From a virus: a stretch of 64,000 nt of DNA. Below, in pieces: positions 9,658 through 61,925 of the stretch. Below the pieces are notes generated by a model that was not told the DNA's origin, searched no databases, and saw only the letters and a program-made list of their open reading frames with translations. The DNA lies in IMG/VR virus record IMGVR_UViG_3300049048_000052, positions 86,643 to 150,642 of that record; one strand, written 5' to 3'. The position numbers were made by a program, and so were the translations under genes. The first letter of the stretch is position 1. Every line of letters begins with the position of its first letter.

Positions 9658-9701
9658 TGGTAAACGGCGTAGGCTAAGGTTAAAGGTGTATAGGTAATAG
9701 T

Positions 9702-9758
9702 GTAGGTTCGAATCCTGCCCTTCCCATATATGGGAAGGTAGTCCAACTGGTAGAGACT
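9702..9758 (+). other. tRNA T-arm plus 3'-acceptor module followed 5 nt later by a complementary 5'-acceptor plus D-arm-like segment
   Basis: GTAGG/TTCGAAT/CCTGC then CCTTCCC A, TATAT, then GGGAAGG TA GTCC AACTGGTAGAGAC. Confidence 0.4.
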
Positions 9759-9862
9759 GTCCAATACACTATATAAGACTGAGCATTAAGTTCAGATTAT
9801 CGCCCTAGACTAAGTCTAAGGACAACAGCTCAGGTCGACTGTCTAGGACAACATTGACCCAC

Positions 9863-9964
9863 GTTGGTTCGAATCCAACCCAGGCCGCTTGGGGGCGACC
9901 CTATATGGGTAGGTAGCTGTCACACTTCTACCCCTTTCTTGGCCTGGTAGACTAGAGGTTAGTC
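9863..9964 (+). other. second T-arm plus 3'-acceptor module with a downstream complementary 5'-acceptor plus D-arm segment
   Basis: GTTGG/TTCGAAT/CCAAC CCAGGCC G ... (53 nt) ... GGCCTGG TA GACT AGAGGTTA AGTC. Confidence 0.4.
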
Positions 9965-10092
9965 AGGTCTTTATTAGATTGATCCTAGACAACTGGAAAT
10001 GAGAATACTGAGATCACTGTTGATGGGGGATTACTAATGCAAGGCATACTGCATGGTAATCCCCTTCCTATTATTAATAAAGGAGAAAGAAG

Positions 10093-12041: not shown

Positions 12042-12830
12042 ATGGATCTGGCAGTCAGGATCAAGGAATTCTATGAGTATGCATACCGCACCTTCCTACC
12101 CAGGAGGATGCCAGTCATACTTAGAGTAGATGGTAAGGCATTCCACTCTTATACAAGGGGTATGAATAGACCCTTTGATGAGAGATTGGAAGAAGTAATG
12201 AACCTTGTAGCTATTAAGCTATGTAAGGAAATACAAGGTGCTCAGATAGCCTATGTGCAATCTGATGAGATCAGTATATTAATTCATGGTTATAAGAAGC
12301 TCAATAGTGAGTCATGGTTTGGTAATAATGTACAGAAGATGACCAGTGTTAGTGCTGGTATAGCTAGTGCATGGTTTACCTACCACTCATCTAGGTTAAC
12401 TACTGTATCTGAGGATATAGGTAATACCCAACAGTTTATAGAATCTAAGCTAAAGCCAGCAGTATTTGACTCTAGGGTATTCGTACTCCCTGAATCAGAG
12501 GTATGTAACTACTTCATATGGAGACAGCAGGATGCTACTCGCAATAGTATCTCTATGCTTGCCCAGTCTTTATACTCCCATAAGGAGTTAAATGGGGTTA
12601 CATGTAATCAGATGCAGGAGCTCTGTTTCCAGAAGGGTCATAACTGGAATGATCTACCTATCATTAGAAAGAGGGGTAGATGTATTCGTAAGTTTATTAG
12701 GTATACACCTGTAGCTGGAAGACCTGAGGGTAATACAGTTGCTAGATCCTATTGGGATGTAGACTATGAGACTCCTATCTTTACTGAGAATCGTAACTAT
12801 ATTGAAGATCTATTAAAGACATATGAGTAG
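12042..12830 (+). CDS. Thg1-like protein (tRNA-His guanylyltransferase family, 3'-5' nucleotidyltransferase)
   Basis: N-terminus PVILRVDGKAFHSYTR...AYVQSDEISIL reproduces the Thg1 RVDGxxFH and SDE catalytic signatures with the correct spacing. Confidence 0.7.
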   Translation: MDLAVRIKEFYEYAYRTFLPRRMPVILRVDGKAFHSYTRGMNRPFDERLEEVMNLVAIKLCKEIQGAQIAYVQSDEISILIHGYKKLNSESWFGNNVQKMTSVSAGIASAWFTYHSSRLTTVSEDIGNTQQFIESKLKPAVFDSRVFVLPESEVCNYFIWRQQDATRNSISMLAQSLYSHKELNGVTCNQMQELCFQKGHNWNDLPIIRKRGRCIRKFIRYTPVAGRPEGNTVARSYWDVDYETPIFTENRNYIEDLLKTYE

Positions 12831-14622: not shown

Positions 14623-14695
14623 AGGTAGCTGGTCCAATATAGGAACGGGCTGTCTCGATAAGAGGCTATGCTAGGTTCGAATCCTAGGCTGCCTA
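14623..14695 (+). tRNA. tRNA (anticodon unresolved)
   Basis: Acceptor AGGTAGC pairs with GCTGCCT (one G-U pair); T-arm CTAGG/TTCGAAT/CCTAG; 73 nt. Confidence 0.5.
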
Positions 14696-15134: not shown

Positions 15135-15401
15135 ATACTGATAAAGATAAGGAACAAGAGCAAGAGGCCCAAGAGGAATCCATGGAGTCTGTCCTACAAA
15201 GGATAGAGGCTATTAAGGATGCTCAAGAGAAAGGTCTAGTTCAAGGTTAAAGATTAGGGAGTTAATGATAACTCCCTTATACATGCCGCTGGATATGGTC
15301 AGGGACCTGATCACCCCTTGAGGTTCGATTCCTCACAGTTGGCTTCAGGAGATAATATATATCTCCTATCTAAAGGGTATTAATGAGGGGGCCACCCGAC
15401 C

Positions 15402-15458
15402 CTAGGTTCGAATCCTAGTTACGCCATCCGGCTGCGTAATGGCTGAGTGGCTAAAAGC
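15402..15458 (+). other. third T-arm plus 3'-acceptor module followed by a complementary 5'-acceptor plus class II-like D-arm
   Basis: CTAGG/TTCGAAT/CCTAG TTACGCC A, TCCGGC, then TGCGTAA TG GCT GAGTGGCTAAA AGC. Confidence 0.4.
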
Positions 15459-15543
15459 AGGTAGTAGGAAAATCCTACTCATCGTCGGGAGCCTCCTCTT
15501 CAATACCCTTTCTTATTGATTGTCTTACCTAGTAGAGACAGTA

Positions 15544-16161: not shown

Positions 16162-16510
16162 AGCCCTGGTTATATCAGGTTGTTTAGGATTAACATTCCT
16201 CTTAGGGGGATGTGATAAGTATGAGTGGAGAAAGGTAGGTGACCGTACCCAATGTTATCGGATAGGTATCATTGGGGAACCCACAACCGCACCTCATCAG
16301 ATGTGTAGGGAGAAAGCAGGTAAATGACGTTCGGTGATTTACACAAAGGAGCTATCTTCCTCTATGCCAACCTCAAACTAAGAAAGGTAGCAGAAGATAA
16401 GGGCGAGGTCCTAGAAGACTGTAATGGCTTTGAGGCGGGACAGTCCTTACCTATAGGGACAGATGAGGAAGTAATGCCTCAGTATGATAGAGCCCTACGC
16501 CCATTCTAAC

Positions 16511-16547
16511 TATTGACTTCATTGATTTACCCTATTGATTGTTTACC
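16511..16547 (+). promoter_or_regulatory. three tandem copies of the ATTGA(C/T)T(T/G) upstream motif
   Basis: TATTGACTTCATTGATTTACCCTATTGATTGTTTACC. Confidence 0.4.
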
Positions 16548-16969
16548 TCATAGGATAAACACAGTGCGTAGATCAAAGAAACTAGCCAAGGCCCTCGCTA
16601 ATCGTCAAGCAGCATTCGATATCTATGCTGCATCGGCAGGTCAACGAGGTCCGGCTTGGAATGCATACCCAGGTGGATTCACCCGTCCGGGTTCAAATAA
16701 GAAGGGCTTCCGTTAATGAGGGATGTTCTGTTAACTATACTTAACATGCTGGTGGGTATAGGCCTATTTATCCTAGCTATCTGGGTATTAGGTCCTTTAA
16801 CTCATTAGTTATTTGTAGCTCATTTATAACCCCAAGGAGGGTAGAGCTATGACCCAGATCATCGATCCGTTTGCCAAGGCCTTCTTTATCATAATCGTAG
16901 GATTGATCGTATTAGTCATAAGGCTAATAGTGATGACATTCACGCACAGGCCTAGGTAGTCCTTAGAAA

Positions 16970-16997
16970 GGAGGAGGGTTAATCTCCTCCTTTTATT
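16970..16997 (+). terminator. rho-independent terminator
   Basis: GGAGGAG GGTTAAT CTCCTCC then TTTTATT, after a 37-codon membrane-peptide ORF (16849..16962). Confidence 0.65.
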
Positions 16998-17382
16998 ATG
17001 TTGCCCACTAGATTACAGATCCTAGATATGTTAATAACTACTAGGAAACATCCGGTTGTAATAAAGGTGAGGGGATATGGTATTGGCAATTAGAAGATTC
17101 CTGTTCCATAACAACGGGGTCGCTGCGGATAGCTACACAGAGGATCAATGTGTAGCTATGAGAAAAGAGCTAAATGATATAGGGGCCGGGTTGCCTATTA
17201 GTACATCAGATAAGGTGGTAGCAACTACCTACCGCAACCTGATGCAAGAGGAAGAGGATGAAGGGTACTGTTATCCTTCATCTAGAGATTACGAAGGTTA
17301 GATAAATAAGTATTGGGGATATCCCCAATACTCTTACTTGCCTGGTATGCACTAAGGTAGTGCGATTAGACCACATATGTTT

Positions 17383-17454
17383 GGGCTCATAGTTCAATGG
17401 ATAGAATGATTCCCTCCTAAGGATTAGATCTAGGTTCGATTCCTAGTGGGCCTG
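17383..17454 (+). tRNA. tRNA (anticodon CCU?, Arg)
   Basis: Acceptor GGGCTCA/TGGGCCT, D-arm GTTC/AATGGATA/GAAT, loop CTCCTAA, T-arm CTAGG/TTCGATT/CCTAG. Confidence 0.55.
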
Positions 17455-17525
17455 CTTTTTATATGGTGGTTTAGTTATAGTGGGTTCGATTCCCACACCA
17501 GGCGTTAGTTAATTAGGGATAATGT

Positions 17526-17933
17526 ATGATTGGTGGGTTAATAGGGACCCTAGTAGTCTATGCATTACTAGGTATTAGTATCATGGCCTTTGTGTCTGAC
17601 GAAGTGGGAATTGAGGAGGGTATCTTTGTAGCAAAGGTGTACTTCTCCCCATTCTTCCTTATCTTCTTACTTATAACAGAGCTAAGCCTATTAGCCTTTA
17701 GATTTACGAGGATGTCCCGCAGAATCAAGGCTAAGGCAAAATGTGATGCTACAAATAGGTTGGCTGGATTAGAAGGGCTGGATATTTCTCATCTTCTAAT
17801 AGAGATACCTGAGAACTGTAATCTGGAGTTTGTAGAGAATCCAGTACAGAGATTCCTGTGGTTCGAGACCTATAAGAGAGAATACAATAATACTCTCAGG
17901 GTTATGTCCGATGAGTCATGGTTAAATAGATAG
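17526..17933 (+). CDS. membrane protein (paralog A)
   Basis: Two N-terminal TM helices; C-terminal ...NPVQRFLWFETYKREYN shared with the next gene. Confidence 0.45.
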   Translation: MIGGLIGTLVVYALLGISIMAFVSDEVGIEEGIFVAKVYFSPFFLIFLLITELSLLAFRFTRMSRRIKAKAKCDATNRLAGLEGLDISHLLIEIPENCNLEFVENPVQRFLWFETYKREYNNTLRVMSDESWLNR

Positions 17934-17943
17934 TTGGGACAAT

Positions 17944-18396
17944 ATGTTTGAATTAATACTGACCCTTGTTATGCTGCAATGCTTTGCAGTACTTATATTC
18001 GCAGCCTTTGGTTGGATTTTAGGAGGGGCAGGAGGTGCTGCCTATGGTGTTGCCTCAAGTCTAATGCCTGCCGTATTTGTAATACATTTACCTAGTCTAT
18101 TGGCTAAAGAGATAGCCCTCATATGCTTCCAGGGAACAAGGGACTATGAGATGTTAGCTCATAGGGCGCAATTAGATATAGAGCAGGACCTAGAAGTAGT
18201 ACAGAAGAATCCTAGGGTGGGTAGGTTAGTAAATACTACCAGGGACTGTAAGATAGATTGGATAGAGGATCCCCTAACTAGATTTTTATGGTTAGAGTCC
18301 TACAAGAGAATCTATAATCCCCCTATGAAAAAGCTCTTAGATGAGATAGATAGGAAGAAGATTACAGACAGAAAAGTAGACTGGTTATCTAGGTAG
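17944..18396 (+). CDS. membrane protein (paralog B)
   Basis: TM N-terminus; C-terminal ...DPLTRFLWLESYKRIYN paralogous to 17526..17933. Confidence 0.45.
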   Translation: MFELILTLVMLQCFAVLIFAAFGWILGGAGGAAYGVASSLMPAVFVIHLPSLLAKEIALICFQGTRDYEMLAHRAQLDIEQDLEVVQKNPRVGRLVNTTRDCKIDWIEDPLTRFLWLESYKRIYNPPMKKLLDEIDRKKITDRKVDWLSR

Positions 18397-19317
18397 TTTA
18401 AAGGGCGCACCTAAAGACCGCTTAGGTTGATATGCTTTTGGAAAAGTTACGAGGTACGGTTATGGGACAAGAGAAGAGACCTAACATATTTGATGTGGCC
18501 AAGAGGGTTGAGGAGGAGGATCTAGTATCCTTTAGTGATCTAATAGAGGCAGTGGATGGTCCAGAGGCATTTACCCCTGAAGGCTACGAGGCTGTAGAAT
18601 CATTATTGGAGCGCAACCTCAGTGGTAAGGCCCCTCGTCATATAGCCTAACTAATATTATTGATTGCTTAGTCCGATAAAAGGTTTGTAATGGACATCAG
18701 CAACAACAGCTCCTTCAAAATATTCATCAGTGATGAAGATAAGTTCAAGAGCACATATCCTAAAGTAGGTATGGCATCCCAAGGACTTGTAGATATCTCT
18801 GAGCAGGATATGTCTACTTATGCATTTGTACATTGTGCGGTATATGAGGACGATCCTTATACGTTCGTAGTATTGTACTCAGGTATAGGGGACAACAATA
18901 ATAATATATTAATAGGTCTTACCTACTCTCCAGATGGGACTCTAACTGAGGCCGCAATGGAAGTAGTAATAGACTGGGAACTCTAAGGTTCCACTTATTG
19001 ATTGACCTCACTAATTAAAGGTTATGGAATTAAACCAGAAAGTCCTAGATCAAATGAGAAGCGATCTAGAGAGCTGTAAGCGGTGTGTAGAAATGCCATC
19101 AGCTTCACAGGTGCTGACCCTAATGAGTCATATGGAAGCACTCTTAGACTTTGCAGGACCTGCGTTAGAGTTGGTAGTCCATACAGGCTTAGGGCCGTTT
19201 ATGTTAAAGGTTCCTTATATACCTAAGACATATCCTATGCCTCATGGTAATAACTCGCATGTGACTGACCTACCTACTGGGTAAGATTGATTGCCTAGTA
19301 TCAGATAGGTTACGAGT

Positions 19318-20028
19318 ATGGCAGTATATGACGGTTGCACCATATTAAATCCTAAAGGGGAGTTTCTAACATGGTGCGCCTCCAAAAAAGCAAGATGGTA
19401 TCTCAATAAGGGTAGGGCTAAACTAGTAGACCAGGATAAGGATGGAAGGCTAACTATACAGTTAGAGTTTGAACCTAAGGGACCTGGTGTAATAGATAAC
19501 CCCTACTACAGAGAACCAAAAGAGAATAAGTGTGTAGTCTGTGGGACCACTGATGATTTAACAAGACATCATGTGGTCCCTCGTTGTTATAGGAAACATT
19601 TCCCTAATGATGTTAAGTCTTTTGCTTCTCATGATGTGTTGGCGGTATGTCATGAATGTCATGAGAAGTATGAGGCTAGTGCAGACCTATTCAAGGTAGA
19701 GCTATTAGCTGAGGTAGATATTAAAGAGGAGGATATCCTAAGGATTAATAGTCTGATAAAGGCGGCATCCTCCTATCTATCTACCAACATTAGGAGCCGT
19801 AAGGGTAGTGCTAACTTCAATAGATTAAAGGAGTACTTTGGCACCTCAAATTTCAATAGGTCAGATCTAGAGGAACTAGCTAACCTTAAGATAGATAAGC
19901 ATAGTTATGTTGTATCTAACATAGAGAGTGTTGAACACTTCTGTCAGAGGTGGAGGGAACACTTTGTTAAGTATGCTAAACCCCAGTACCTACCTAAGTA
20001 CTGGACTGTTGAGGGTACATGGTGCTAA
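19318..20028 (+). CDS. HNH endonuclease family protein
   Basis: CVVCG...TRHHVVPRC...CHECH arrangement (Cys pair, HH, distal CxxCH) typical of the HNH motif. Confidence 0.6.
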   Translation: MAVYDGCTILNPKGEFLTWCASKKARWYLNKGRAKLVDQDKDGRLTIQLEFEPKGPGVIDNPYYREPKENKCVVCGTTDDLTRHHVVPRCYRKHFPNDVKSFASHDVLAVCHECHEKYEASADLFKVELLAEVDIKEEDILRINSLIKAASSYLSTNIRSRKGSANFNRLKEYFGTSNFNRSDLEELANLKIDKHSYVVSNIESVEHFCQRWREHFVKYAKPQYLPKYWTVEGTWC

Positions 20029-25475: not shown

Positions 25476-25754
25476 ATGAAACCAGGACCTAAGAAGGGTA
25501 GTAGTCAGAGTAAATCCCATGTTGCCAAGAGGGCCAAGGCTGTAAAAGGTAAGGCCAATGGTATGTTTAAGGATGGAAGACGTTCCTATCGTTCCATAGC
25601 GGGAGCTAGGAATAGCGATGGAAAAGTTGTGCATCACAAGGACGGTGATAGGACCAATAATTCAAGATCTAATCTAAAGGTCCTGAATGATGGTCCTAGT
25701 AGGCCAGGTAGGAAGACAACTAGTAAGCATGAAAGACTTACTAGACGTAAGTAG
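25476..25754 (+). CDS. small basic HNH (HNH_3-type) endonuclease-like protein
   Basis: 92 aa, K/R-rich, with VVHHKDGDRTNNSRSNLKVL (the HH.DG...NN...NL pattern of HNH_3-type homing endonucleases); ends exactly where a tRNA-like gene begins. Confidence 0.5.
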   Translation: MKPGPKKGSSQSKSHVAKRAKAVKGKANGMFKDGRRSYRSIAGARNSDGKVVHHKDGDRTNNSRSNLKVLNDGPSRPGRKTTSKHERLTRRK

Positions 25755-25924
25755 CCAGTGTAGCTTAAAAGGTAAAGCGTACCCCTCTCAGGGTATACCG
25801 AAAGGGTCCATAGGTAATAGGTGTAGTTGCAAGATTCTGTGAGAGTTATAAACTCCGTATTCGGCAGAGTCCCAGACTGCACAACTATACCTATGGATAT
25901 GAGGGTTCGATCCCCTTCACTGGC
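25754..25924 (+). tRNA. tRNA-like gene (anticodon-arm loop CTCTCA, Glu-like) with about 100-nt insertion after the anticodon arm
   Basis: 5' part 25754..25795: acceptor GCCAGTG, D-arm GCTT/AAAAGGTA/AAGC, stem TACCC/GGGTA. 3' part 25901..25924: T-arm GAGGG/TTCGATC/CCCTT, acceptor CACTGGC pairing 7/7. Confidence 0.35.
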
Positions 25925-26012
25925 GTTGACTAAGATAGAACAATGAGACATAAAGAAATGCCCCTCTATGTAAGACACATAAGAGGGGGTCCAATTAACT
26001 TAGGAGTAAATA

Positions 26013-33787: not shown

Positions 33788-33847
33788 ATCTTAGGGCGTA
33801 AGCCCTTATTCATTCCTCAGTGGCGCAGTGGATAGCGCACCCGCCTT

Positions 33848-34537
33848 TAGGATAGGAGCACTTCTAGGGGAAACCCTTAAAGTGAATGTGGTTAAATTCA
33901 GGGAAGACTAAGTAGATTATGATCAAACTCCCAATGACAGTTAGGACATAGAGGTACTAAGTTGTCTACAGAGTTAATGTCGTTAACTAAGGTTTCATGT
34001 GGAAAACTAGAGATGGCCTTTCTATGGGCTATTTCAACATGTTTGTTATACCCACAGTTAATACAACAAGACCAGTCGAGTTTTGCTGCTACAGCTCTAG
34101 CCCTTGCTCTAACTAAAGCATAGGCTGAGGACCTGTGATGTTTATTGTACATGGCTTCTTCTAAAGTGACATTTAGATTTAGTCCCTTACGATGAGATCC
34201 AAAGCAGGATTTACAGTAGGTTCTGGAGTTACTTATAGGAGTGGTGCATACCAAGCATTTATTCTCGGGTTTCCTCTTGGGGAAATTACGATTATTATGT
34301 GTAGCAGCACAACTCTTACTACAGAACTTAGGGTTAGTTGTTTCCTTATTACAGTTGAGACAATTCATAGTTTATATGTTAATCCTGAGCCAAGCTATTC
34401 GAAAGCCCTATTATATCATGGGTTCGAATAGAAGGTGCAGAGACTTAACAGCCACCACCTAAGGTCATAAGACTATGGTGAAGATAAAGTCCAGACTACA
34501 AACACTCTTGAGTGGCAGCTAAAGCTGTAGTAGGAGG
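33848..34537 (+). mobile_element. group I-like intron in the tRNA anticodon loop (between nt 34 and 35)
   Basis: TTCAGGGAAGACTAAG (33897..33912) and AAGATAAAGTCCAGACTACAA (34481..34501) resemble the group I R and S (P7) elements; terminal G before the 3' exon; about 210 nt of non-ORF sequence. Confidence 0.55.
33898..34368 (-). CDS. HNH homing endonuclease, encoded antisense inside the tRNA intron
   Basis: 156 aa; CINCGYNKHVEIAH...NLVPLCPNCH is a classic HNH motif, plus N-terminal CxxC pairs. Confidence 0.7.
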   Translation of the reverse strand: MNCLNCNKETTNPKFCSKSCAATHNNRNFPKRKPENKCLVCTTPISNSRTYCKSCFGSHRKGLNLNVTLEEAMYNKHHRSSAYALVRARARAVAAKLDWSCCINCGYNKHVEIAHRKAISSFPHETLVNDINSVDNLVPLCPNCHWEFDHNLLSLP

Positions 34538-34595
34538 CTAAGCGGTCGGTCGCAGGTTCGAATCCTGCCTGGGGAGTTTTAGTTAGGAGAAGATC

Positions 34596-43252: not shown

Positions 43253-43311
43253 CTGGTTCTATAAAATAGAACTGGTTGAGGGGGAGTGGTGTAATGGTAG
43301 CCACGCAGGTC

Positions 43312-43857
43312 TTAACTCATTGGAGTTAGTTGGTGTATTAGTTTATAAGCGTTCTTAACTAGATCTCTAGAGAGCATCTTACCACCAGATATCAATTTTA
43401 TAATTGGGTTCTTGCGTGAGTGGTCTAACTGAAATCTAGCTTGAGGATATAAGTCCAGGAAGGATGTGGCAGTATCTTTATTAGAGGCAGCTATTTCTAT
43501 CCTATAAGTCTTAACTTTATAGACTTGTACTAAAAGTTGCTTTATCAGATCTATTAAAGTAGGATCCTGGTTGCAGAAGTAAACATGATTTGTTTTATCT
43601 GTATGCCAGCCCTCACATAAATAGGCCGTATGGGCAGCAATGGAAAGAGGTGTTAGGAGTAAATCATCTGTAGGGGAGATATAGTTCTTCCTAGCTAGAA
43701 AGTTATACTCTGAGGCAGATCTCATTGGTATATGGTACTTCCTTAAGTAAGACCTAATAGTCTTATGGTTACAGGCTAGTAACTGACCTATCTGATAGGG
43801 ATTAAGTTCCTGAGTCAGGTATAGATCCTCAAGTACCTCTTTATTAATTAACTTCAT
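43312..43857 (-). CDS. intron-encoded protein, antisense (HTH plus LAGLIDADG-like, putative homing endonuclease)
   Basis: 181 aa inside the second tRNA intron; N-terminal helix-turn-helix-like segment and AYLCEGWHTDK, loosely resembling a single LAGLIDADG motif. Confidence 0.5.
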   Translation of the reverse strand: MKLINKEVLEDLYLTQELNPYQIGQLLACNHKTIRSYLRKYHIPMRSASEYNFLARKNYISPTDDLLLTPLSIAAHTAYLCEGWHTDKTNHVYFCNQDPTLIDLIKQLLVQVYKVKTYRIEIAASNKDTATSFLDLYPQARFQLDHSRKNPIIKLISGGKMLSRDLVKNAYKLIHQLTPMS

Positions 43858-44111
43858 AATCCTGAGCCTTCATGTAGAAATACATGTTGTGAACGAAGCT
43901 ATATGCGGGAAACGCTTAAAGCCTACAACACTATATGTCTACCAAGATATAAGTAACAGTTTGTAGGATGTAACAATAGCCAATCCGCAGGGAAGATACC
44001 TAGGTATCCCCTCAGAGACTAAACGCTTTGCACCTTAACGTAGAGACGAAGGTGATGATATAGTCCAGACTACAACAGCTTACGCTGGCCTATGAAAGTA
44101 GGAGTAGTAAG
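43314..44111 (+). mobile_element. group I-like intron in the tRNA-Leu anticodon loop (between nt 34 and 35)
   Basis: TCAGAGACTAAACGC (44012..44026) resembles R; GATGATATAGTCCAGACTACAACAGC (44054..44079) resembles S; terminal G; near-identical S region to the first intron. Confidence 0.55.
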
Positions 44112-44266
44112 AGGAACCTGTGCCGCAAGGCGTGAGAGTTCGAATCTCTCCTCCCCCATTTACAGTAGTGAGCACACGGTATGATGTAGGGTTCCCCCTA
44201 CTTGTACTAAGGCTAATACCTTTGCTATATTCACTACTGTAAACATATTGATTGTTTCTAATAATT

Positions 44267-45282: not shown

Positions 45283-45630
45283 ATGGAAATGGATATATTT
45301 AGCCCCTCAAGACTCGTCTGTATTCACTATGGAAATAATGCTATAGATGAGATAATGGATGGTAGAGCTGAGGAAGCCCTAGATAAACTAGAGAAGGCTC
45401 GTGAGGATGATATGTTCGATATGGAGCATTATCAATCTATACTGCTCTATGTGGGTGCATGCCTTAAACAAGAGAGCATGGGCCATTATATACAATTCCT
45501 ATTGACTATCTTTGATGAAGATGATATTACTAGTATTAACACCGCAGATTCTAAGGTCAATGGTGTCCTAGCGGAAGCGGCAGCAATCCATAGCGGGGAT
45601 GGAGCAACGGGAGGCTCGATGGTCTCATAA
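45283..45630 (+). CDS. hypothetical protein
   Basis: 115 aa, preceded by a 14-bp-stem hairpin. Confidence 0.4.
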   Translation: MEMDIFSPSRLVCIHYGNNAIDEIMDGRAEEALDKLEKAREDDMFDMEHYQSILLYVGACLKQESMGHYIQFLLTIFDEDDITSINTADSKVNGVLAEAAAIHSGDGATGGSMVS

Positions 45631-45666
45631 GCCATACATCGCTGAGTTCAATTCTCAGCCCCGACA
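45593..45666 (+). tRNA. tRNA-like (anticodon CAU) with imperfect acceptor stem
   Basis: D-arm GAGC/AACGGGAG/GCTC, anticodon stem-loop ATGGT CTCATAA GCCAT, T-arm CTGAG/TTCAATT/CTCAG. The acceptor pairs only 5/7 and the loop overlaps the TAA stop of CDS 45283..45630. Confidence 0.35.
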
Positions 45667-45898
45667 TTGTCAGTTTACCTGTCCTGACGTTGTGAAAAGA
45701 TAGGTGTAGGTCATAGGCCTAACTAGCAAGAATTGAGTTCGAATCTCAACAGGTCCATTTCGAGGGCCTGACTTGGTAATCGATTGTTAGCATGAGGAAC
45801 TATGACTGAAGGTGTGTACAACCAAAGTACAGAACAACAAGTGCAACCAATAACATTGTACCCTTCTCAAGGGTAAGTTCTATAGTAGTGTAATCTAC

Positions 45899-48105: not shown

Positions 48106-48419
48106 TTTATATGTGCCTATCTTATTCAGTCGGCATATGTAACTATATAAATATCTCCATCAAACTGATAGAGTCATAGAGCCTATATGGTCTCTGACTA
48201 AGAGCTGATACGGATGGAATATTGGGGGATAGGTACTCCCGATGAGGGCCCCAGCTCTCAACACAAATATCAGCTCTCCTAGCAACTAACTGGCTTATGC
48301 TAACCCTTAATCAGGTAATCATATATTGGTTCAACTCCAATAGTTGCTTTTCCCAGTCGCATAACTTGCGTTCCCAACTGGGATTCTTAGCAATGGTTGG
48401 CTTAGTCCAATCATTTCTT

Positions 48420-60316: not shown

Positions 60317-61435
60317 ATGGACAGTGAAATAGTAAGCAAGAGGACAATATTGTTAGGCCTTGGGGGTAGTCATTCCTATGGTCTAAATGTAGAAGGTTCT
60401 GATATAGATGGTAAGGGTATATGTGTAGGGCTAAAGGAGCATTACCTAGGCTTCACTACATTTGAACAGAAGGACGCAGGTTGGGATATAAGTAAGACGT
60501 TATGGAAGGATCATCCTATTAAGATAGGTGAGGACCTAGTTGTATATGAACTACGTAAGTACCTGCAGTTGGCTGCGGATGCTAATCCTAATATACTAGA
60601 ACTCCTATGGTTGAAACCAGAGCAGTATCTATTACAGACAGAGGTAGGTGCTGAGCTGATAAAGCATAGGCAACTGTTTATGACTAGTAAGTGTAAATGG
60701 ACCTTTAGTGGTTATGCCCATAGCCAATTAAAGAAGATACAGGCTCACCGTAAGTGGTTATTGGATCCACCGGATAGGAGACCTGAGCCACAGGACTTTG
60801 GTCTTGGTCTGGGTAATAAAGATCCTATGACCAAGGAACAACTACATGCCTTCTATGAGTTTCTATATATCCTGGTTAGAGATGCTATCGAATATGCTCA
60901 ACCAGCTGAGGACTTATATAACATATTAATTGCTCGTATAGATTACAAGGGTCTATTCAAACAACATCCACTATCTATAGGGGTACTGCCCTATGTACAA
61001 TCCTTAACTAGATCCTCTGATGACTTTATAAGTCTACTGCATGCTAGTCAGGAGTATAGAGGAGCTCTGACCCGTTGGGATGCTTATCAGAATTGGAAGC
61101 TTAATCGTAACAAGAAGAGGGCAGCTACTGAGGCCGCTATTGGTTATGACAGCAAACATGGTATGCATCTAGTAAGACTGTTGTCTATGGGTATTGAGAT
61201 CCTAGAGACAGGGGAGCTTATAGTGGATAGAGGCATAGCTGGGGATAGAGATGATCTTATGGCCATACGTAACTGCGAGTGGCCCTATGAGAAGCTAATG
61301 GACTATGTTAGTCTCTTAGAGCAAAGAGTAGAGGATGCGTTTAAGCAAACTAGACTTCCTAGATCCTGTGACCGAACTAAGGTCAATGAGTTGTGTATTG
61401 AGTTAGTTGAGATAATGGGTTGGTATGACTATTAG
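60317..61435 (+). CDS. Pol-beta-superfamily nucleotidyltransferase
   Basis: LGLGGSHSYGLNVEGSDIDGKGI is the hG[GS]x9-13[DE]h[DE]h nucleotidyltransferase signature; 372 aa. Confidence 0.6.
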   Translation: MDSEIVSKRTILLGLGGSHSYGLNVEGSDIDGKGICVGLKEHYLGFTTFEQKDAGWDISKTLWKDHPIKIGEDLVVYELRKYLQLAADANPNILELLWLKPEQYLLQTEVGAELIKHRQLFMTSKCKWTFSGYAHSQLKKIQAHRKWLLDPPDRRPEPQDFGLGLGNKDPMTKEQLHAFYEFLYILVRDAIEYAQPAEDLYNILIARIDYKGLFKQHPLSIGVLPYVQSLTRSSDDFISLLHASQEYRGALTRWDAYQNWKLNRNKKRAATEAAIGYDSKHGMHLVRLLSMGIEILETGELIVDRGIAGDRDDLMAIRNCEWPYEKLMDYVSLLEQRVEDAFKQTRLPRSCDRTKVNELCIELVEIMGWYDY

Positions 61436-61925
61436 GAAACTATACGGGGACATTGTCAGTCTCGCCATTGATGCTTCTACTACACATAAGATAGTGATAG
61501 CCCATCAGGTTAATTGTATCCCTATTATGGGAGCTGGATTAGCTCTGCAAATAGCGAATGCTTTTCCTAATGTGGAGAGGGAGTATCGTCTTAAGCATGA
61601 TGGTTGGAGATTAGGGGATCTACAGATCGTAACCACACATTACTACCCTAATATCTGTGTGGCTAACCTAGCAGGTCAGAGAGGTGTAAAGAGCCGTACT
61701 AATCCAGTACCCACTAATCTGAAGGCCCTTAGTTTGGCTTTGGAGGGTTTGTCTCAGTGGAGATCCTCTGATGAGGCTACTGGGTACAAGCTATTATTCC
61801 CTATTGGTATGGGTTGCGGTCATGGGGGAGAATCCTGGGAAAGGGTTCAACCTATTATTGAGGAAAGGATGCAGCCTCATCATGAGTTCTGCTTCTTTGT
61901 TAAGAGAGACAGAAGAAGGACGTAA
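61425..61925 (+). CDS. macro domain protein
   Basis: IVIAHQVNC...MGAGLALQIANAFP resembles the macro domain ADP-ribose-binding loops (NAAN...GGGV.GAI analogue). Confidence 0.6.
   Translation: MTIRKLYGDIVSLAIDASTTHKIVIAHQVNCIPIMGAGLALQIANAFPNVEREYRLKHDGWRLGDLQIVTTHYYPNICVANLAGQRGVKSRTNPVPTNLKALSLALEGLSQWRSSDEATGYKLLFPIGMGCGHGGESWERVQPIIEERMQPHHEFCFFVKRDRRRT

Follow-up and report, generated by a model that had tools for sequence, protein, structure and literature searches.

A tRNA-Arg gene nested between the halves of a tRNA-shaped element in a probable cyanophage

The nested tRNA locus

The transfer RNA (tRNA) locus described here lies in the IMG/VR virus record IMGVR_UViG_3300049048_000052, at positions 17340..17504 of a 64-kb stretch of DNA (positions 86,643 to 150,642 of the record; hereafter, the window) from a phage of 183-251 kb that is probably a cyanophage. 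The locus consists of a complete gene for tRNA-Arg(CCU) placed between the 5' and 3' halves of a second, tRNA-shaped element that we call the shell. An arrangement of this kind had been proposed in an earlier note made from the sequence alone, and all the coordinates given there hold: the outer acceptor strands form 7 of 7 Watson-Crick pairs, the outer D arm and T arm are both present, and the gap between the two halves is occupied by a complete tRNA. The components of the composite unit are listed in Table 1 together with the other tRNA-like features of the window.

The nested structure is not a product of chance. The minimum free energy (MFE) fold of the 165-nt unit is a nested double cloverleaf of -61.3 kcal/mol (RNAfold; z=-4.65), and the outer halves, when joined without the inner tRNA, fold with -42.3 kcal/mol (z=-6.49); in each case, 0 of 200 shuffled sequences folded as well.

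The inner element is a bona fide tRNA. ARAGORN calls tRNA-Arg(CCT) at 17383..17455, and the Rfam tRNA model RF00005 matches it over model positions 1-71 with 60.4 bits (gathering score, 29; local scan, E=7.5e-13). Its anticodon loop, CUCCUAA, has the regular 7 nt with U33 and a purine at position 37, and the arginine identity bases are in place, namely A20 within the D loop AAUGGAUA and C35. The discriminator base is G and the CCA end is not encoded. None of the phage tRNAs in the window encodes CCA, which fits a maturation route through RNase Z and CCA addition. The spacer upstream of the inner tRNA places a U at position -1, the usual context for RNase P. Downstream, the trailer G|cttttt begins with C, where all the other tRNA trailers in the window begin with T.

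The place of the outer anticodon arm is taken by a long helix that carries the inner tRNA at its tip. The inverted repeat that had been reported around the inner tRNA is indeed present and is longer than had been stated: it amounts to 16 bp, 12 of them Watson-Crick and four G.U, with one bulged G. All the non-Watson-Crick pairs (4/4) are G.U on the transcribed + strand, and the duplex is more stable in the sense than in the antisense orientation (-15.3 vs -8.7 kcal/mol), a strand asymmetry that is among the largest of 40 comparable elements. The 7-nt outer D loop is self-complementary, and RNAfold draws it as a 6-bp stem capped by an AGG triloop.

Table 1. The composite unit and other features of the window, with positions counted from the first nucleotide of the window
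Feature	Position	Strand	Basis or remark
Whole composite unit, outer tRNA-shaped shell plus nested tRNA	17340..17504	+	MFE fold
Outer acceptor stem, 5' strand GCCTGGT	17340..17346	+	7/7 Watson-Crick with 17497-17503
Outer A8 T9, then D arm GCAC/TAAGGTA/GTGC with G18 G19	17349..17363	+	Sequence, detector
16-bp helix replacing the anticodon arm, 5' strand	17364..17379	+	Pairs with 17460-17476
UUU spacer, 5' leader of the inner tRNA	17380..17382	+	Unpaired in MFE fold
Inner tRNA-Arg(CCU)	17383..17454	+	ARAGORN, Rfam RF00005
CUUUU spacer, 3' trailer of the inner tRNA	17455..17459	+	Unpaired in MFE fold
3' strand of the 16-bp helix, bulged G17465	17460..17476	+	
Short variable region of the shell, ATA	17477..17479	+	Unpaired in MFE fold
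Outer T arm GTGGG/TTCGATT/CCCAC	17480..17496	+	Perfect 5-bp stem, canonical T loop
Outer acceptor 3' strand ACCAGGC (17497-17503) and discriminator G17504	17497..17504	+	
Perfect hairpin GTATTGGGGA TA TCCCCAATAC	17308..17333	+	Between upstream open reading frame stop (17301) and composite unit
Thg1-like tRNA-His guanylyltransferase	12042-12830	+	PHROG 4717, 2e-85
RlaP nucleotidyltransferase with phosphatase-like open reading frame directly after	60317-61925	+	
tRNA gene split by group I intron	33814-34576	+	RF00028 at 33837-34513
tRNA gene split by group I intron	43280-44158	+	RF00028 at 43845-44086
YrlA (Y RNA-like) candidate, permuted	9670-9790	+	Full model, 26.8 bits, E=0.0016, gathering score 69
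Permuted tRNA-like gene, no family match	9863-9965	+	
Permuted tRNA-like gene, no family match	15402-15480	+	
Two-piece (permuted) cyanobacterial-type tmRNA candidate	45709-45893	+	Adjoins tRNA-Met 45591-45667
tRNA-Glu(CUC)-like cloverleaf, hairpin arm of about 90 nt in variable region	25754-25925	+	Rfam tRNA 38.7 bits, full model
Perfect T-arm hairpin, loop TTCGAAT	14671-14687	+	
Perfect T-arm hairpin, loop TTCGATT	15319-15335	+	
Perfect T-arm hairpin, loop TTCAACT	48325-48341	+	

The shell has the shape of a tRNA and probably does not decode

The outer element shows the hallmarks of a tRNA, with a 7-bp acceptor stem, a D arm that contains GG and a T arm with a TTCRA loop. The part of the earlier note that described it as a tRNA therefore stands for the cloverleaf stems but not for the anticodon arm, and neither ARAGORN nor Rfam calls a tRNA on it; the outer T arm falls outside every ARAGORN tRNA and is, in this sense, an orphan. 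A 5-bp anticodon stem with a 7-nt loop exists neither in the element as it stands nor after removal of the intervening sequence. Instead, the 16-bp helix runs uninterrupted from position 26/27 to the spacers beside the inner tRNA. Intron-tolerant prediction, which had been proposed as a check, gives no call for the outer RNA (ARAGORN -i), and no tRNA is found by ARAGORN after clean deletion of the inner tRNA. No combination of flank nucleotides yields a 7-nt loop with U33 in the outer RNA. After trimming of extra 3' bases, ARAGORN produces a weak call of an outer tRNA-Met (CAU); we reject this candidate, which has A33 in the loop and a mismatch and wobble pairs in the stem and competes with the 16-bp helix. 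The outer element is thus tRNA-shaped and probably does not decode.

The shell also falls outside the known classes of rearranged tRNA genes and tRNA-like RNAs with which it was compared. In an Rfam scan of 17250-17600 at E up to 10, the outer part matched no family, and no group I intron (RF00028), transfer-messenger RNA (tmRNA) or YrlA was detected. No bulge-helix-bulge motif is present in the helix, which has a single 1-nt bulge (G17465), nor is the arrangement permuted or split, given that the outer halves are colinear on one strand with the 5' half first. Comparison of the outer RNA with 1670 tRNAs pointed to no clear isoacceptor as its ancestor, and no aminoacylation identity elements are recognisable in it: it has no G3:U70 pair and no long variable arm, and its discriminator is G. 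We also considered a miniature inverted-repeat transposable element with a TTAG target duplication; its excision would bring the D and T arms to within about 11 nt of each other and restore no tRNA, and it is rejected as a simple recent insertion.

The ends of the shell resemble those of ordinary tRNAs. The outer leader and trailer, tt|G...G|tt (G|ttag), agree with those of the other tRNAs of the same phage, all of which, apart from the inner tRNA, have trailers that begin with T. This resemblance is the best local sign, although no more than a hint, that the unit may be handled as a tRNA at its outer borders. A shared motif, ATAGGTAATAG, was considered as a processing signal; its enrichment (10 matches vs 4.4 expected) is not significant.

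Nested tRNA genes in other phages and in bacteria

To place the locus among other genomes, we relied on a simple logic, namely, that two hallmarks of a tRNA (a pair of T arms or a pair of D arms) lie too close together for consecutive genes. A relaxed detector of nested tRNAs returned 58 cases among 1670 ARAGORN tRNAs, against 4 in a control with scrambled acceptors. No nested gene was found in 80 loci of phages with Thg1 (about 1.3 Mb) that had not been selected for nesting. The nested arrangement is rare in general yet recurrent, and the fold topology seen in the window occurs elsewhere. The cases identified in this analysis fall into two classes that we define here, a phage type and a bacterial type that is found largely in the candidate phyla radiation (CPR).

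In IMG/VR, the T-arm-pair scan recovered at least 2 further nested genes (L026 and L072), and the complete D-arm-pair scan (79 loci) recovered 11 nested loci of about 7 families, for a total of about 8 phage families from both scans (L208, L246/L072, L217, L228/L267, L241/L248/L277, L262 and L026, all on IMG/VR phage contigs). Phage-type genes lack the extra helix and have their insertion in a short outer anticodon loop; the inner isoacceptor differs from the outer one, and CCA almost always follows the inner tRNA directly. The outer loop reads CUUUU | tRNA-Asn+CCA | AA in L208 and CUU | tRNA-Phe+CCA | CUAA in L246. Deletion of the inner tRNA with its CCA (CCC in L072) creates the loop CUUUUAA of a tRNA-Lys(UUU) in L208 and the loop CUUCUAA of a tRNA-Arg(UCU) in L246/L072, and ARAGORN then calls normal tRNA-Lys(UUU) and tRNA-Arg(UCU) on L208 and L246. 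No other copies of these isoacceptors were present in the fetched part of the L208 and L246 tRNA clusters. In five other phage families, removal of the inner tRNA and CCA did not yield a 7-nt loop. When the nested L246 and L208 sequences were compared with cultured phages, only the inner tRNAs matched. From these sequence features, the phage-type nested genes are candidates for tRNA splicing that would depend on RNase P and RNase Z.

A separate observation concerns a phage family of about 25 IMG/VR loci (among them L202, L205, L206, L209, L213 and L225), in which a tRNA 5' half, comprising the acceptor strand, the D arm and the start of the anticodon arm, is followed by a tRNA with the acceptor GGTATTA/G. 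The latter has a hairpin in the D loop and an 8-nt anticodon loop, AACGAAAG; no 3' half that would match the upstream fragment was seen in these loci.

The D-arm-pair scan of GTDB genomes recovered at least 38 nested genes by the acceptor test, of which at least 37 have a recognisable outer T arm (at least 120 loci). The nested genes listed come mostly from metagenome-assembled genomes of CPR/Patescibacteria (Saccharibacteria, Berkelbacteria, Falkowbacteria, Microgenomates and others), and some come from assemblies labelled Gammaproteobacteria. In this bacterial type (for example, L391, L313, L324, L337, L294, L338, L285, L344 and L352), the flanks of the inner tRNA are paired and prolong the outer anticodon stem. 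Two forms of this helix occur. In L391, L313, L324 and L337, the seven loop nucleotides persist as an internal loop, and joining of the exons yields perfect Thr(UGU), Met(CAU) and Val(CAC) tRNAs by ARAGORN. The helix of L294, L338, L285/L365, L360 and L380 is unbroken and leaves no outer anticodon loop.

The inner isoacceptor is usually the same as the outer one in the bacterial type, to the point of near-identity in L344 and L321, and the repeats have termini that recur in different tRNAs and in different hosts (CCCGCCTGC/GCAGGCGGG-type and CCCCG/CGGGG-type). The asymmetry of G.U pairs, when applied as a general test of selection at the RNA level, was not significant in the bacterial set. The inner tRNA of the same isoacceptor, the recurring termini and the absence of strand asymmetry agree with a cassette at the DNA level, which would interrupt a gene and at the same time supply its replacement. 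A tRNA-Phe family (L311, L331, L332, L340 and L352) has a second CCCCG...CGGGG hairpin after the nested insertion, and the bases of the anticodon loop form a 7-nt island between the two insertions. Some of the bacterial outer genes are clearly damaged: the 3' anticodon strand is missing from L306, and the 5' half of L341 is garbled. Rfam, applied to seven other nested loci, detected the inner tRNAs (70-76 bits) and nothing else.

In all the nested loci, including the window, a complete, high-scoring inner tRNA separates the halves of a cloverleaf whose acceptor stem has 7 bp. The window has the extended flanking helix in common with the bacterial-type genes, the fold topology in common with L294, L338, L285 and L391, and the absence of an outer anticodon loop in common with L294, L338 and L285. 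It differs from the bacterial type in that the inner and outer elements are unrelated (over the 10 nt that follow the outer D arm, 5/10 are shared with the inner tRNA, compared to 7-10/10 in many bacterial cases) and that the repeat sequence is unrelated to the recurring termini (CCCGCC.../CCCCG...), and also in its location in a phage. It differs from the phage type in that the inner tRNA is followed by CUUUUU rather than CCA, the flanks, of 13 and 16 nt, pair with each other and the outer loop cannot be reconstituted. Judging by these comparisons, the window unit appears to be a distinct variant of a wider nested-tRNA architecture.

Relationship to known disrupted tRNA genes and tRNA-like RNAs

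Group I introns in the anticodon loop of bacterial tRNA genes have been described in cyanobacteria and Patescibacteria (PMC13011429). Like these genes, the window unit has an intervening sequence in the anticodon region of a bacterial-type tRNA gene, and insertion at 35/36, the hotspot in Patescibacteria, is common to several of the bacterial nested genes (PMC13011429). A group I intron, however, is a ribozyme, usually of at least 200 nt, whereas the intervening sequence in the window measures 95-116 nt and is a tRNA. Unlike the group I intron tRNAs, the window unit has no RF00028 match, does not follow the U/G splice-site rule and has no joinable pair of exons.

The archaeal tRNA-Trp intron is known to carry a box C/D guide RNA. 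The protein-spliced tRNA introns of archaea and eukaryotes (PMC4090602, PMC3400036) are thus similar to the window unit in that a functional small RNA resides inside the intervening sequence and two products derive from one precursor. These introns are defined by the bulge-helix-bulge and cut by the splicing endonuclease, whereas the helix in the window is continuous and the host is probably bacterial. The split and permuted tRNA genes of Nanoarchaeum, Cyanidioschyzon and Thermofilum likewise consist of separated halves that are joined by complementary flanks, but the halves in the window are in the normal order, in one transcript, with a tRNA between them and with no splice motif or anticodon (PMC3978253).

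The tRNA-like domains of tmRNA and YrlA share with the shell the acceptor stem, the T arm, the GG of the D loop and a long helix that replaces the anticodon arm. Unlike tmRNA, the window unit has neither the G3:U70 alanine identity nor an mRNA-like part; YrlA has a topology opposite to that of the window unit, with a closed acceptor stem and ends that lie on the anticodon side. An engineered 'tRNA scaffold' for the expression of recombinant RNA was reportedly introduced by Ponchon and Dardel in 2007. Its architecture is nearly identical to that of the window unit, with an extended anticodon stem that bears a cargo RNA at its tip, where the cargo is protected and tRNA processing is recruited. 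The scaffold is a laboratory design, whereas the cargo in the window is a tRNA with RNase P and RNase Z sites of its own, at which it would be cut out. We found no description of a nested tRNA, a tRNA within a tRNA or a tRNA as an intron in the literature that is searchable in full text; subscription-only papers were outside this search, and a prior description is possible.

A possible carrier of the inner tRNA and its alternatives

We favour, with a probability of about 0.5, the reading that the shell is a maintained, non-decoding carrier of the inner tRNA. Under this scenario, one 165-nt precursor would fold into the double cloverleaf, with tRNA-Arg(CCU) at the tip of the 16-bp stem. RNase P would cut before G17340 and before G17383, and RNase Z would cut after G17454 and after G17504. 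The released tRNA-Arg would receive CCA and read AGG codons, and what remains of the shell would be two pieces, about 43 and 50 nt long, that are paired with each other, lack an anticodon and do not decode; if a ligase sealed the nick, the shell would become a hairpin with an 8-nt U-rich loop. The shell would have originated from an older tRNA gene, the anticodon region of which was invaded by a tRNA flanked by inverted repeats. Its role could be that of a folded carrier, which would present the inner precursor, stabilise it and label the unit for processing of the tRNA type. The unusual concentration of rearranged tRNA and tRNA-like genes in this phage increases the prior probability that the nested unit is processed and functional as an RNA, as opposed to debris.

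Several considerations weigh against this reading. Every processing step in the scenario is inferred, and so are the role of the shell and its origin by insertion. A plain tRNA gene would be processed equally well without a shell, and the benefit of a carrier is unproven. A terminator-like flag falls on the run of U directly 3' of the inner tRNA, and if transcription stopped there, the shell could not form. The 6-bp closure of the self-complementary outer D loop is possible and would weaken a true tRNA elbow. The argument from G.U pairs rests on four pairs (about p=0.06 alone), and the bacterial helices show no asymmetry between sense and antisense (19 vs 12, p=0.28). The phage has no close relatives in the collections searched and, with no relatives of the composite unit, covariation analysis of the shell is impossible, so that selection on the shell gains no support from this side. 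An exact search of IMG/VR with both outer halves and a search of JGI metagenomes with a degenerate pattern of the outer D arm and T arm returned nothing; BLAST of 16500-18500 against 50,697 phage records matched the inner tRNA alone (81-85%); and the adjoining downstream open reading frame (ORF; 17526-17933) has no homologue but itself among 5.8 billion protein clusters.

The earlier note had offered two origins for the locus, an intervening sequence that is itself a tRNA or the insertion of one tRNA gene into another. The geometry common to both is borne out, and the architecture recurs elsewhere, but the intron option fails in the window because the exons cannot join into a working tRNA. Insertion is the better fit as an origin, although it leaves the intact outer stems and the wobble pairs, all of them G.U, unexplained. 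The neutral form of the insertion scenario holds that a tRNA cassette flanked by inverted repeats entered a dispensable phage tRNA gene, the halves of which are now a young pseudogene without a role; we regard this as possible and, on balance, rather unlikely. The flanking helices of the bacterial genes are equally stable on both strands, as DNA inverted repeats would be, and their conserved termini resemble the ends of mobile elements, yet the repeat in the window has no sequence in common with those termini, and four of its four wobble pairs favour the transcribed strand. The clear damage in some of the bacterial outer genes speaks for relics, whereas in the window no decay is apparent in the acceptor (7/7), D (4/4) and T (5/5) stems or in the signature bases of the T and D loops. 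An HNH-endonuclease-like ORF that lies 1.8 kb downstream of the unit (19318-20028) also speaks for this reading. Removal of the repeat, with or without TTAG, regenerates no former tRNA; remodelling of the anticodon arm must have taken place, a sign of age.

True splicing, with the inner tRNA as an intron removed by RNase P and RNase Z and the halves joined into a second functional RNA by an ATP-dependent RNA ligase, is highly improbable for the window. Cleavage by RNase P gives the upstream piece a 3'-OH, and cleavage by RNase Z gives the downstream piece a 5'-phosphate. These are the ends that ligases of the Rnl1/Rnl2 type need, so that splicing would be chemically easy for L208 and L246, for which exact deletion gives canonical loops of isoacceptors otherwise unseen in the fetched clusters, and the exons of L391, L313, L324 and L337 also join into perfect loops. 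In the window, the same chemistry yields no tRNA product: the joined sequence contains no ARAGORN tRNA and would carry a 16-bp arm with the 8-nt loop UUUCUUUU, which cannot reach the decoding centre, and the lack of 7-nt loops extends to five of the other phage families. The window encodes proteins of the RNA-repair type (the Thg1-like protein, the RlaP nucleotidyltransferase and phosphoesterases), but no Rnl or RtcB ligase was found when its 65 ORFs were compared with Pfam and PHROGs, the 64 kb being part of the 183-251 kb phage. It is also conceivable, albeit quite improbable, that the shell is an independent non-coding RNA that mimics a tRNA, for example, as a decoy or partner for a tRNA-binding enzyme or an RNA-repair complex, and that the inner tRNA is a by-product. 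Such a mimic would be at home in a phage that has tRNA-repair-type enzymes, a YrlA candidate, a two-piece tmRNA and a tRNA-Glu with an extra arm of about 90 nt, and the shell does retain the acceptor, the T arm and the GG/TTC bases of the elbow; nevertheless, it matches no Rfam family even at E up to 10, and no partner protein or aminoacylation identity element is recognisable.

A broader proposition is that nested tRNA genes form a class of disrupted tRNA genes that has so far gone unrecognised. One tRNA would be the intervening sequence of another, and its excision would rely on the universal end-processing enzymes RNase P and RNase Z, or on trimming of the CCA end, with neither a ribozyme nor a splicing endonuclease involved; the halves would then be ligated or persist as a two-piece RNA. 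The window would hold a derived member of the class, with a selected, anticodon-less mimic that shares its precursor with tRNA-Arg. Taken as a whole, this proposition is doubtful.

Implications

Disrupted tRNA genes, whether intron-containing, split or permuted, have shaped ideas on the origin of tRNA and on RNA processing. To our knowledge, the only introns known in tRNA genes of bacteria and phages are self-splicing, of group I and very rarely of group II, and the natural substrates of bacterial and phage RNA ligases are still debated. If the outer RNAs of L208 (Lys), L246 (Arg) and L391 (Thr) mature, they would represent protein-dependent bacterial tRNA splicing by RNase P, RNase Z and a ligase, and would provide a natural substrate for bacterial and phage RNA ligases. 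If, on the other hand, the inserts are mobile cassettes, each with a tRNA that takes the place of the disrupted gene, they would constitute very small mobile elements of a new kind. In both cases, the tRNA counts of phages and CPR bacteria are under-called or mis-called. Standard annotators miss a tRNA within a tRNA and report the inner gene alone. The phage studied here offers a compact test bed, in which nested, intron-split and extra-arm tRNAs occur together with a Y-RNA-like gene and a two-piece tmRNA.

Genomic setting and other tRNA-like genes of the window

The window belongs to a Logan contig of 183 kb (SRR35214979), and its proteins recur on a contig of 251,780 bp that is probably the JGI record. 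The genes of the window are all on the + strand and are mostly orphans. The class II ribonucleotide reductase has its nearest relatives in Nodularia cyanophages (47%), and the nearest homologue of the Thg1-like protein is 63% identical. A CAAD domain, typical of cyanobacterial aminoacyl-tRNA synthetases, is also encoded, along with YqeY, an AlkB-like oxygenase and metallophosphoesterases; no match to a splicing endonuclease domain was found among the 65 ORFs. The large ORF that extends from 61941 to the end of the window may encode a GHKL-type ATPase, judged by eye from the translation alone. A tRNA-Tyr with a long variable arm and the cyanobacterial-type tmRNA point to a bacterial host, and the tmRNA candidate specifically supports a cyanobacterial one.

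The perfect hairpin that separates the composite unit from the upstream ORF is a palindrome that the terminator-like scan lists on the - strand only, the + strand reading being taken from the sequence; it is possibly a weak terminator or a processing hairpin.

Including the outer T arm of the composite unit, ten perfect T arms lie outside the called tRNAs of the window. Two of the genes concerned are split by group I introns and are missed by ARAGORN; in both, the acceptor 5' strand and the D arm lie upstream of the intron, and a perfect T arm and the acceptor 3' strand lie downstream. Another 3 or 4 of the ten orphan T arms are in a permuted order, with the T arm and the acceptor 3' strand followed by a short linker, the acceptor 5' strand and the D arm. 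These include the YrlA candidate, for which no Ro/Rsr gene was seen in the window, the tmRNA candidate and two genes without a family match. For the T arm at 15319, no partner acceptor strand exists within 1200 nt upstream; over 3 kb to each side there is a single match, a 7-mer with wobble pairing that lies 530 nt downstream. The other two solitary hairpins lie in regions, 14623-14695 and 48281-48349, that may be degenerate small tRNA-like genes.

The tmRNA candidate scores 45 bits with the tmRNA_permuted model (gathering score 47, E=7e-8) and 43 bits with the cyano_tmRNA model (E=1e-10), and ARAGORN also calls a permuted tmRNA there, with the tag ATNNIVPFSRVSSIVV. Without the intron option, ARAGORN makes no call on the tRNA-Glu(CUC)-like gene, and with this option it calls another tRNA there; the insert of about 90 nt matches no Rfam family, and the whole gene folds with -71.2 kcal/mol (z=-6.65).

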